Part shown: positions 11,349 to 13,874 of the stretch, piece by piece
How the letters are laid out: every line of letters starts with the position of its first letter
Numbering within the stretch: position 1 is the first letter of the stretch
Origin: a virus
Taxonomy: Duplodnaviria > Heunggongvirae > Uroviricota > Caudoviricetes
IMG/VR virus record: IMGVR_UViG_2778261540_000003
Strand: one strand, 5' to 3'
Length of the DNA stretch: 64,000 nucleotides
The notes under the pieces: generated by a model
Databases searched by the model: none
What the model was told of the DNA's origin: nothing
What the model saw: only the letters and a program-made list of their open reading frames with translations
Program-made: the position numbers and the translations under genes

Positions 11349-11978
11349 ATGAACATACCACCCAGGGCGACTAGGACTGTTTTTTGTGTCGGTAGCGGTC
11401 CGTCACTCACTCGTGAGGACTGTGCTGCTATAGAAAAAACTGGCTGTTCAATCATCGCGGTTAACAATTCCTGGCAGATGTTCGATGACATTTATGCTTT
11501 ATACGCCGGTGATTTGTCATGGTGGAAGCAATACGGATCCACCATACCGGGAGGGAGATTCCGCAAAGTGACAGCCAACCTGGCGGCGGCGAAATCATTT
11601 TCGTTGGAGTACAGGCGATATTGTGGACCGGCGGAAGGGGTAAATAGCGGCGCGCAGGCTATCAGTCTGGCTGCTGAATCAGGGGCTGAAGTAGTGGTAT
11701 TAGTCGGCTATGACTGTTCTCTGCAAAACGGCCTTCATTGGCATGGCGCGCACCCTCAAGCACTACGGAATCCAACGCAGGTGTCTATTTCAAAATGGCA
11801 ACAGCAGTTCCTGGATACCCGCAAAAAACACGCAGATTTACATATTTTGAATGCAAGTAGGAGCAGTGCAATTCAATGTTTCCCAAGAATAAATTTAGAG
11901 GCAGTGATCGCGTTATTATCGTCGGCAGTGGCCCAAGCGCCGCAAACTTTGTTGCGCCGCGCGGAGTGCCGATTATAG
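11349..11978 (+). CDS. GT42/DUF115-like protein (GSGPS motif), putative glycosyltransferase
   Basis: VGSGPSLT ... IIAVNN N-terminal motif as in CstII-type sialyltransferases and MAF proteins; start chosen at ATG 11349 (ORF track begins at 11316). Confidence 0.45.
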   Translation: MNIPPRATRTVFCVGSGPSLTREDCAAIEKTGCSIIAVNNSWQMFDDIYALYAGDLSWWKQYGSTIPGGRFRKVTANLAAAKSFSLEYRRYCGPAEGVNSGAQAISLAAESGAEVVVLVGYDCSLQNGLHWHGAHPQALRNPTQVSISKWQQQFLDTRKKHADLHILNASRSSAIQCFPRINLEAVIALLSSAVAQAPQTLLRRAECRL

Positions 11979-12502
11979 CGGTCAATGGGGCCATCGACTG
12001 GCTTAACCGCGCTTCTTATTTTTTCACCCTTGATCCATCCCCAGACAATATGCGGCGCGTTGGTCGTGGCCGCCGTCGCCGTGGTGTTTGTTATTGCATG
12101 GCACTACCCGATGTTAAAGAACGTGAAGTCAGAGATGGCGTTCTGTGCTTCCGTCGTGTGGCTGAACGCGGCATGGAGCCAAAAAATACGAATTCTCCCG
12201 AGTGGTGGGCGTGGCGCTGGTCCGCACATTTCGGCCTTTGCGAAGATGAGAATGAAATTGCCAGCGGCAATAGTGCATATGGTGCTCTGAACCTGGCTTT
12301 CCATATCGGATTCAAACATGTAGCTCTGGTGGGCGTTGACGCTACGCAAGAACTACGCGTTCACTCCGGCGGCACGCCAAAAAATCTAAGTCACCTGCCT
12401 TTGTTATTCCAGTCTGCGCGTGAACAGATTGACGTTGTTTCATGCGGGAAAATGGGAGGTATTCCGCAGATGACTCTTAAAGAATGGCTGAAGAATACAT
12501 GA
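11876..12502 (+). CDS. Paralogous GT42/DUF115-like protein (GSGPS motif)
   Basis: [11 protein letters not shown] ... IIAVNG; 5' end overlaps the upstream paralog by about 100 nt in the -1 frame. Confidence 0.45.
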
Positions 12503-13176
12503 TGGCACCCACAATTTATCACCGTATCGACGGTACCAAATACAGGAATGTCTGGGTTGTTGGTGATCTGCATGGTTGCTACACCAGACTGATGTCCGAA
12601 CTCCATCGTGTGGATTTTGACCCGGCGCAGGATTTACTGATATCGGTCGGCGACCTTATCGATCGCGGTACTGAAAATGTCGAATGTCTGGAACTATTGC
12701 AGATGCCCTGGTTCAGGGCAGTGATGGGGAACCATGAGCGGCTGATGATTGATGCGTTAAGTCCAGATGGCAACGTGAATAACTGGCTAATGAATGGCGG
12801 ACAATGGTTCTTCATGCTGGACACTGATCAGGAAATATTAGCCTGGGCGCTGGTGGAGCTGGTAAAGCGTCTGCCCTATATCATTGAGTTGAACACGGGG
12901 CAAGAAACTATCGTTATAGCCCATGCCGACTATCCGGATAATGAATACCAATTCGGTAAGGAGGTGCCGCTTTTCAACGTTGTCTGGGCGCGCGAGCGTA
13001 TCAGTGATTCGATGGATGATATTGGTGGCGAAATTTCGGGCGCAGATCGTTTTATCTTTGGTCACACTCCGGTGAAAAGCCCGAAGACATTCTGGAATCA
13101 GCAGTATATCGACACTGGTGCCGTATTTTGCGGAAACCTGACATTGATGAAAGTGAAAGGTGATGGTGCAGCATGA
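12484..13176 (+). CDS. ppp: Ser/Thr protein phosphatase, lambda PPase family
   Basis: High similarity to lambda phosphatase (GDLHGCY, GDLIDRG, GNHE motifs). Confidence 0.85.
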
Positions 13177-13874
13177 AGATTGCTTTAGTTTTTCGCTCTG
13201 GTGGTGACTATAACGCTTCCGATGTGCAGTGGCTGGTTAATCAACTGCCAAAAGGCTATGAAATTATTTGCCTGACAGACCTGAAGCGTTTACATGTACC
13301 TGGCGTCAAAGTTGTCCCATTGATCAACCAGTGGCAAAAGTGCCGTGGCTGGTGGGCGAAAATCGAGTTGTTCCGACCGGATATAACCGATGATCTGTTC
13401 TATCTGGATTTGGACACGGTTATTGCCGGTGATATACGCCCAATCCTAGAGCATCCACCAACCAGCTTCACCATGCTTAGGGATTTTTACCATCCACAAT
13501 ATCGTGGCAGCGGTGCCCTGTGGATACCAAATAGTGTTAAAGCGCATATCTGGAGTTCATTCTGGCAAGATCCGGAAGGTTGGATTTCTCGTTGTGTCAC
13601 TACTGAGTGCTGGGGTGACCAGGGGTTCTTACGAAAGGTTATGGGCGATGATACACCAGCATTTCAGGATCTGTATCCAGGATGGTTTGTAAGTTACAAG
13701 GCCGATGTTGTGGAACCTGGTTCAAAATATGCGAGCGCGCGTTACTCCAGGGGGAATGGGGCATTACCAAAAGACTGCCGAATAATCTTTTTCCACGGCA
13801 AACCGCGACCTCGCGAAGTGTCAGAGGATTGGCTTCCCCTTATCAGCTCATTTTTTGAGCGAGAATCAGAATAA
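13173..13874 (+). CDS. Putative glycosyltransferase (DxD motif)
   Basis: 233 aa with YLDLDTVI DxD-type motif; start overlaps the ppp stop. Confidence 0.45.

Follow-up and report, generated by a model that had tools for sequence, protein, structure and literature searches.

Genes pmgO, pmgP and pmgQ of P1-type phages form a mobile cassette of predicted glycosylation enzymes

The window analyzed here is a 64,000-nucleotide (nt) stretch of viral DNA (IMG/VR record IMGVR_UViG_2778261540_000003), which carries the genes pmgO, pmgP, ppp and pmgQ in a row. Three of them, pmgO, pmgP and pmgQ, constitute a mobile cassette that recurs in mutually unrelated phages whose hosts are Gram-negative. On balance, we favor the reading that it is an accessory glycosylation system whose predicted enzymes are produced in the cytoplasm in the course of lytic growth. 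Comparison of window positions 10300-14200 with phage P1 (AF234172, 78576-82476) revealed 99.4% identity, and 98-99.7% identity was found with other P1-type phage-plasmids. By this comparison we assign the window to a P1-type phage and the four genes to P1 pmgO, pmgP, ppp and pmgQ; PmgO and PmgP of the window are 100% identical to the P1 c1.100 proteins. The original prediction had proposed three glycosyltransferase-like proteins together with a lambda-type phosphatase, and all four open reading frames (ORFs) were found at the proposed positions, all of them on the plus strand. The genes were known before under generic labels, so that their finding itself is not new: the P1 record names pmgN, pmgO, pmgP, ppp and pmgQ, and RefSeq already lists PmgO as 'alpha-2,3-sialyltransferase' and PmgQ as 'glycosyltransferase'. 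New in this analysis are the mobile cassette of pmgO with or without pmgP and pmgQ, the conserved out-of-frame overlap of pmgO and pmgP along with a natural fusion of both, and an alternative set of partners.

A first scan of viral contigs gave near-identical P1 copies only. Among PmgP-seeded loci with adequate flanks, pmgQ was present in all (20/20) and pmgO in 18 of 20. The carriers comprised P1-type plasmids, phage phiNP, the 111-kb coliphage EP_H11, the jumbo phage XacN1 of Xanthomonas, and prophages of Pseudomonas, Alloalcanivorax, Zhongshania, Brevundimonas and Sinomicrobium; the hosts also spanned Enterobacterales, and every host seen was Gram-negative. When the window was compared with the whole phiNP genome, pmgO, pmgP, pmgQ, one DUF968-like ORF and one short match of 51 amino acids (aa) were found in common. 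Apparently, the cassette moves independently of structural genes, because the P1-type window and phiNP share almost nothing else. An ORF of about 350 aa at window positions 25245-26294 showed 27.5% identity (E 8e-42) to the second 'antitermination protein Q' of phiNP, and a prophage copy of this phiNP protein carries the Pfam domain DUF968.

The cassette usually occupies a place among late or structural genes, and additional glycosyltransferases or sugar methyltransferases often accompany it. It was located 3' of lysis genes and 5' of the terminase; in other cases it follows the major capsid gene directly and precedes the head-tail connectors, or it comes immediately 3' of antiterminator Q. 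A TylF-type sugar O-methyltransferase is fused to PmgQ in XacN1 and to PmgO in protein P0313, and at locus L105 an S-adenosylmethionine-dependent methyltransferase gene lies between pmgP and pmgQ. Furthermore, EP_H11 carries an extra GT1-like gene (sub-threshold match), and a weak match to nucleotide-diphospho-sugar transferases was obtained at locus L005. The small gene pmgN was not found as a fellow traveller of the cassette in other genomes.

PmgO-like genes are by far not restricted to this cassette. A search with the PmgO profile yielded 475 cluster representatives at E<=1e-30 and 3,734 at E<=1e-10. Among 80 diverse viral contigs with a PmgO-type pattern, 4 carried pmgP and/or pmgQ; the remaining 76 O-seeded loci lacked both, which weighs against an obligate partnership of PmgO and PmgP and weakens an obligate heterodimer of the two as a candidate. 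A gene of family phrog_6804 was present in 59 of the 80 contigs, in 56 of them immediately downstream of the pmgO-type gene. Its product is conserved and has about 290 aa; in the loci inspected, a Methyltransf_23 methyltransferase gene often follows. The pair of pmgO-type gene and phrog_6804 gene is placed immediately 3' of antiterminator Q or behind the Rz spanin. Hence, PmgO-like genes are a common core, mostly without pmgP or pmgQ, and their partners are interchangeable. Examples of the phrog_6804 gene are L113 7551-8417 and L146 7543-8484, besides those at 57 other IMG/VR loci (L112-L189). We take the N-terminal sequence GLGDSIYQRAFV of the phrog_6804 protein to be reminiscent of GT9 heptosyltransferases; searches of Pfam and of solved structures gave no sequence match to this protein, and its assignment as a GT9-like heptosyltransferase found no sequence support there.

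The original prediction regarded PmgO and PmgP as adjacent paralogues with a VGSGPS...IAVN motif. Both motifs are present, at 11388-11405 and 11454-11465 in pmgO and at 11921-11938 and 11975-11986 in pmgP. Pairwise BLASTP gave a weak match (E 0.003 over 36 aa), and the alignment of the two family profiles, built from 35 sequences each, extended over 161 columns with an hhalign probability of 98.2% and E 4.3e-14. This similarity is far beyond chance and, at the level of profiles, marks PmgO and PmgP as true and old paralogues. In PHROGs they belong to phrog_4603 (PmgO) and phrog_2111 (PmgP). Both are soluble single-domain proteins (209-220 aa and 208 aa, respectively) with no transmembrane segments and isoelectric points (pI) of 9.1-9.5. 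In the family alignments, VGSGPS, NSG and GYD of PmgO and VGSGPS, NSA and GVD of PmgP are invariant or nearly so; furthermore, Asp122, His130 and His132 of PmgO (numbered from ATG 11349) and Asp155 and His173 of PmgP are invariant. Because each paralogue retains its own full set of invariant motifs, both are probably active as predicted enzymes. Three proteins of 380-440 aa (P0223, P0243, P0301) each contain two tandem PmgO-type domains. Together with the natural fusion P0171 described below, they indicate that duplication and fusion occurred more than once in the PmgO family.

AlphaFold (AF2) models computed on the family alignments reached mean predicted local distance difference test values of 89.5 for PmgO and 93.8 for PmgP. 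They display the fold common to Maf and MptE, two solved members of the PF01973 class; this fold class also holds pyrophosphokinases. Sugar-transferring members of the MptE/DUF115 fold (Maf, CstI/II, GT29) use keto-sugar acids activated with cytidine monophosphate (CMP). The best structural relative of PmgO and PmgP is the Maf flagellin glycosyltransferase of Magnetospirillum (PDB 5mu5), with 16-17% identity. A Maf protein has about 630 aa and additional flanking domains; PmgO and PmgP each consist of one domain of about 200 aa. Moreover, flagellin genes and genes for the synthesis of CMP-pseudaminic or CMP-legionaminic acid are absent near any cassette, and phage lysis or structural genes and other glycosyltransferase genes adjoin instead. 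In the GT42 enzyme CstII of Campylobacter jejuni, the motifs GNGPS, TSG and GID align with the GxGPS, SG-type and GxD motifs of PmgO and PmgP. The catalytic His188 of CstII is located on a lid, and this region is shorter in PmgO and PmgP; His130 and His132 of PmgO and His173 of PmgP follow the GxD strand and are candidate counterparts of His188. None of the inspected cassette loci contained genes for the synthesis of sialic acid, and E. coli K-12 is not known to make CMP-sialic acid. A further enzyme compared, WaaZ (GT73), adds the third residue of 3-deoxy-D-manno-octulosonic acid (Kdo) to the lipopolysaccharide (LPS) core of E. coli K-12 and matches the MptE-like family with E 7e-7 and 29.6 bits, below the cut-off of 34.6. 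WaaZ uses CMP-Kdo, the one matching donor that the host of P1 supplies; unlike the phage-borne pmgO and pmgP, its gene is chromosomal and lies inside the waa operon. Orthology of PmgO and PmgP to WaaZ was rejected: the NCBIfam models TIGR04437 and NF007333 gave no match to them at E<=0.01, as compared to 479-554 bits for E. coli WaaZ, and the hhalign probability was only 14-18%.

PmgQ (233 aa) matched phrog_1962 at 2.5e-128; like PmgO and PmgP, PmgQ and Ppp contain no membrane segment. The DxD motif claimed for the third gene was confirmed as DLD (D79-L-D81), which is invariant in 26 family members. A search with the PmgQ family profile against solved structures retrieved Gat1 (6mw5, E 1.5e-6), GlyE (5gvv, E 0.0036) and glycogenins (E about 0.02). 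The DxD and a C-terminal H..G.P.P region of the retaining GT8 enzymes, which include these three and the LPS enzymes WaaO and WaaJ, align with the invariant DLD and HGxPRP of PmgQ, although PmgQ is shorter. We classify PmgQ as a predicted GT8-like DxD transferase, of a family that uses uridine diphosphate-hexoses.

Several results weigh against the assignment of the three proteins as glycosyltransferases. The Pfam family PF01973 (MptE-like, former DUF115) was reached by PmgO with 23.4 bits and by PmgP with 20.9 bits, both under the gathering threshold of 34.6; neither PmgO nor PmgP matched a solved glycosyltransferase significantly by sequence, and PmgQ gave no match in Pfam, including GT8 (PF01501). 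Some homologues pass PF01973, for example P0171 with 44.6 bits, and several carry precomputed PF01973 matches. The designation 'GT42/DUF115-type' in the original prediction thus stands for fold and motifs and fails for membership, as CstII was found only at E 0.36-0.73 with the PmgO profile and not at all with the PmgP profile: PmgO and PmgP belong to the DUF115/MptE/GT42 fold class at the level of fold and motifs. A different chemistry was considered as well, in which PmgO and PmgP are pyrophosphokinases similar to MptE and thiamine pyrophosphokinase. They would use ATP to activate a hydroxyl group or small molecule, with Ppp or PmgQ acting downstream. The sole Pfam family touched bears the name of MptE; the genes accompanying pmgO and pmgP, however, encode a GT8-like transferase, further glycosyltransferase-like proteins and sugar O-methyltransferases, there are no genes of pterin, thiamine or nucleotide pathways among them, and ppp does not accompany the cassette. 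Moreover, an invariant Asn follows strand 2 (AVN), as in CstII, and the Asp-rich motifs of thiamine pyrophosphokinases appear to be absent from both proteins. We regard pyrophosphokinase activity as very unlikely and prefer sugar transfer, mainly because of the glycan-type companions in the cassette.

The fourth gene, ppp, had been described as a phosphatase gene between glycosyltransferase genes. Its position and phosphatase type were borne out; its membership of the unit was not. Ppp matched the calcineurin-like phosphoesterase family PF00149 with 59.3 bits (cut-off 21.5), the NinI-like phrog_246 at 5e-113 and NCBIfam models of the PrpA/PrpB type. Like lambda phosphatase and NinI, it has the metallophosphoesterase motifs GDLHG, GDLIDRG and GNHE, and the P1 record states 64% identity to the lambda enzyme. 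Embedding in a glycosyltransferase cassette sets it apart from lambda phosphatase, and this was observed solely in P1-type phages. Since ppp lies between pmgP and pmgQ in the P1 lineage only, and occurs in phage D6 in the absence of pmgO, pmgP and pmgQ, it is an unrelated passenger inserted in the P1 lineage, and it was rejected as a functional member of the cassette.

The overlap of pmgO and pmgP was examined as a possible annotation artefact or frameshift site. The overlap of about 100 nt with pmgP in the -1 frame, as originally predicted, is real and comprises 103 nt, because ATG 11876 is the sole start codon in the pmgP frame 5' of the strand with the invariant VGSGPS, which itself sits within the overlap; the next Met is located about 59 codons further in, past conserved residues. 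Seven junctions were analyzed (P1, Citrobacter phage phiNP, a Pantoea P1-like plasmid, Chimaeribacter, Zhongshania, Microbulbifer and Brevundimonas), and in all seven the genes overlap by 7-133 nt with pmgP always in the -1 frame. Gene calls also overlap in EP_H11, in XacN1 and in a prophage of Pseudomonas. The metagenomic phage protein P0171 (376 aa) is a natural fusion of both domains in the same order. According to the AlphaFold models, dual coding may be tolerated in that an ordered C-terminal helix of PmgO lies over the disordered first ten residues of PmgP, and the low-confidence, unconserved tail of PmgO lies over the ordered strand and GSGPS loop of PmgP. In the public records, the pmgP homologue of EP_H11 (L106 6001-6633; OP688485 42813-43415) is unannotated. 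In phiNP (L190 23695-24336, OR565852), the pmgO homologue is likewise unannotated, and the pmgP homologue is annotated from an internal Met and thereby loses the GSGPS motif lying in the overlap.

A formal slippery heptamer, A_AAT_TTA, occurs in the overlap at 11891-11897, in the correct register within the pmgO frame. A programmed -1 ribosomal frameshift at this site would produce a PmgO-PmgP fusion enzyme like P0171, in which the domains have the same order; these domains are arranged in tandem, whereas the P1 coding sequences overlap. The corresponding overlaps of L003, L089 and L100 lack the heptamer and the remaining ones have it altered, an in-register X_XXY_YYZ is expected by chance in an estimated 13% or so of cases over 34 codons, and the RNA fold of the 78 nt downstream was no better than shuffled sequence (z = +0.40). 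Additionally, pmgP has its own ATG preceded by AGGAG. The frameshift, with its heptamer in P1 only and no stimulatory structure, was rejected and is the least probable of the alternatives considered here. The overlapping starts and stops probably couple the translation of pmgO and pmgP, which is the simpler explanation.

In the P1 record, the predicted sigma-70 promoter PpmgN and the C1 repressor operator Oppp are located upstream of the operon and two more C1 operators 3' of pmgQ; these control elements are retained in the window. Because the operon lies behind Oppp, it should be silent in the lysogen and be expressed after induction or infection; the cassette sites in other phages are likewise lytic or late positions. 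Seroconversion by lysogens, as considered in the original prediction, is therefore unlikely, with the C1 operator preceding the operon and the copies of other phages among late genes. The -10 element of PpmgN (11141-11146) reads CATGCT in the window and TATGCT in P1 c1.100, a change of one base which would weaken the predicted promoter. Deletion or CRISPR interference (CRISPRi) knockdown of pmgO, pmgP, ppp and pmgQ did not affect plaque formation, anti-restriction was unchanged in the mutants, and none of the four proteins was among the reported virion proteins (PMC9024508, PMC10695390).

Taken as a glycosylation cassette, the three genes suggest the following sequence of events. The core enzyme PmgO would act first on the acceptor and its partners would elaborate the product, because the partners are interchangeable and PmgO-like genes are also found by themselves or in different company; PmgP and PmgQ, the former always accompanied by pmgQ and almost always by pmgO, may then extend the glycan. 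No cassette seen has genes for sugar-nucleotide synthesis, so that the donors must come from the host, and CMP-Kdo is to our knowledge the only CMP-keto-sugar acid of E. coli K-12. Concerning the acceptor, our leading but tentative guess is a protein released at lysis, namely a virion component or, for chromosomal copies, leaderless Ig-like (Big_1) proteins; LPS core or another envelope glycolipid comes close behind. The remaining probability falls to something else, outside the protein and LPS readings and the very improbable kinase-type one. Glycosylation of DNA was considered and set aside: the MptE/DUF115 fold has no known member that modifies DNA, and no sugar modification is known for the DNA of P1.

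Several observations point to a protein acceptor. Maf, the best structural relative of PmgO and PmgP, glycosylates a protein in the cytoplasm, the closest solved relatives of PmgQ all act on protein-linked glycans, and the cassette lies among structural genes. At the chromosomal loci L004 (Serratia plymuthica), L103 (Pseudescherichia) and L109 (a Logan contig), pmgO/pmgP/pmgQ-type genes are located between holin and lysozyme genes; adjacent to them are encoded Big_1 Ig-like proteins, apparently without signal peptides as read from their N-termini, and inverse-autotransporter (IAT_beta) adhesins. Protein P0231 joins a PmgO-type domain to Big_1/Big_13-like domains, the latter by sub-threshold matches. 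The loci L004, L103 and L109 thus look like sites of lysis-type secretion that carry glycosylation genes of their own. No Big_1-like acceptor encoded in the window was found by phmmer at E<=1, and the 64-kb window held no structural protein common to P1 and phiNP that could serve as joint acceptor. A virion acceptor is disfavored by the occurrence of the cassette in phages with unrelated structural genes and by the virion proteome paper on P1, which reported no modification.

Both characterized carriers, phiNP and P1, bind LPS-core glucose, which favors the remodelling of LPS or another envelope glycolipid. Here, PmgO and PmgP would add Kdo-type residues, as WaaZ and CstII do, and PmgQ a hexose, as WaaO and WaaJ do, to newly made LPS core at the inner membrane face; the phage would thus mask or truncate its own receptor and spare its progeny from binding to debris or infected cells. 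The receptor of P1 is the LPS core glucose. That of phiNP is the outer-core glucose GlcII (PMC6456863). The Gram-negative nature of all hosts seen agrees with such a target, as does the movement of the cassette among phages with unrelated virions, which fits a target conserved in the host; furthermore, PmgO and PmgP are basic, their fold also includes CstI/II and, via its sub-threshold match, WaaZ, and a faint precomputed WaaZ_KDO_III match was found on P0171. As far as we know, CMP-Kdo is also the only matching donor in K-12. Repression by C1 in P1 and the placement among late genes elsewhere, however, leave little time to alter surface LPS, the WaaZ models miss PmgO and PmgP, the best solved-structure matches (Maf for PmgO and PmgP; Gat1, GlyE and glycogenin for PmgQ) act on proteins, and the knockouts have no plaque phenotype. 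We judge LPS remodelling possible, if rather unlikely, and retain the protein acceptor as the leading guess.

In its most specific form, which we consider doubtful, this reading would mean that P1, along with many temperate and jumbo phages whose hosts are Gram-negative, attaches sugars to proteins within the cytoplasm shortly before lysis, either to virion components or to other lysis-released proteins with Ig-like domains. The cassette would be modular, with transfer of a Kdo-like keto-sugar acid by the PmgO-type core enzyme and with interchangeable extenders (PmgP plus PmgQ, or the phrog_6804 protein plus a methyltransferase). Mycobacteriophages Che8, Corndog and Myrna reportedly carry virion glycosylation cassettes (Freeman et al. 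2023). These are also non-essential sets of phage glycosyltransferases and methyltransferases beside structural genes, reported to decorate capsid and tail proteins; they belong to other enzyme families and to hosts among the Actinobacteria.

If true, no earlier system for the glycosylation of virions or proteins is known from phages that infect Gram-negative hosts, and the enzymes would represent a new family of protein glycosyltransferases. P1 is heavily used in genetics, and the genes described here are among the roughly one quarter of its genes without a tested function; a three-enzyme sugar cassette of the lytic cycle that is both conserved and mobile points to a modification not yet sought in P1. 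A modification of virions would bear on immune recognition and phage therapy, one of the LPS receptor on progeny loss and superinfection; if no modification exists, the genes are dispensable accessory genes with generic database labels. Deletion mutants exist already (PMC9024508), making the question directly testable.

The coordinates of the cassette genes and of the elements around them are compiled in the following table.

Genes and control elements of the pmgN-pmgQ region in the 64,000-nt window
Feature	Position	Strand	Remarks
Predicted sigma-70 promoter PpmgN	11120-11146	+	-35 TTGAAC, -10 CATGCT; P1 annotation, exact offset; precedes operon
C1 repressor operator Oppp (former Op83), CATGCACTAATTAATTT	11159-11175	-	Identical to annotated P1 operator
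pmgN, 51-aa acidic protein, pI 4.2	11219-11374	+	P1 annotation; 3' end overlaps annotated pmgO start
pmgO, DUF115/MptE-fold transferase-like (predicted)	11316-11978	+	Annotated start 11316; alternative ATG 11349; conserved domain about 11373-11918
AGGAG, Shine-Dalgarno-like element	11859-11863	+	12 nt 5' of pmgP ATG; sequence reading
pmgO/pmgP overlap, 103 nt	11876-11978	+	pmgP in -1 frame relative to pmgO; sequence reading
pmgP, distant pmgO paralogue, same fold (predicted)	11876-12502	+	
ppp, lambda/NinI-type Ser/Thr protein phosphatase (predicted)	12484-13176	+	PF00149, phrog_246, NCBIfam PrpA/PrpB-like models
pmgQ, GT8-like DxD glycosyltransferase (predicted)	13173-13874	+	DLD at 13407-13415; C-terminal HGxPRP
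C1 operator OpmgRa	13876-13892	+	Opens next transcription unit (pmgR, pmgS)

The genes pmgN and pmgO overlap by 59 nt (11316-11374) with the annotated start of pmgO and by 26 nt if pmgO begins at ATG 11349. The essentiality of pmgN is disputed, as it appeared essential upon CRISPRi knockdown and non-essential upon deletion (PMC10695390). A PADLOC search matched none of the cassette genes to defence or anti-defence components. Several neighboring genes named 'putative morphogenetic' (window positions 10326-11152 and 14176-16017) look enzymatic or regulatory, not structural: PmgL resembles a DksA-like zinc-finger protein and PmgM a nuclease of the VRR-NUC or Holliday-junction-resolvase type. Additionally, Pap resembles a HAD phosphatase of the polynucleotide-kinase type, and PmgS matches a head-morphogenesis family.

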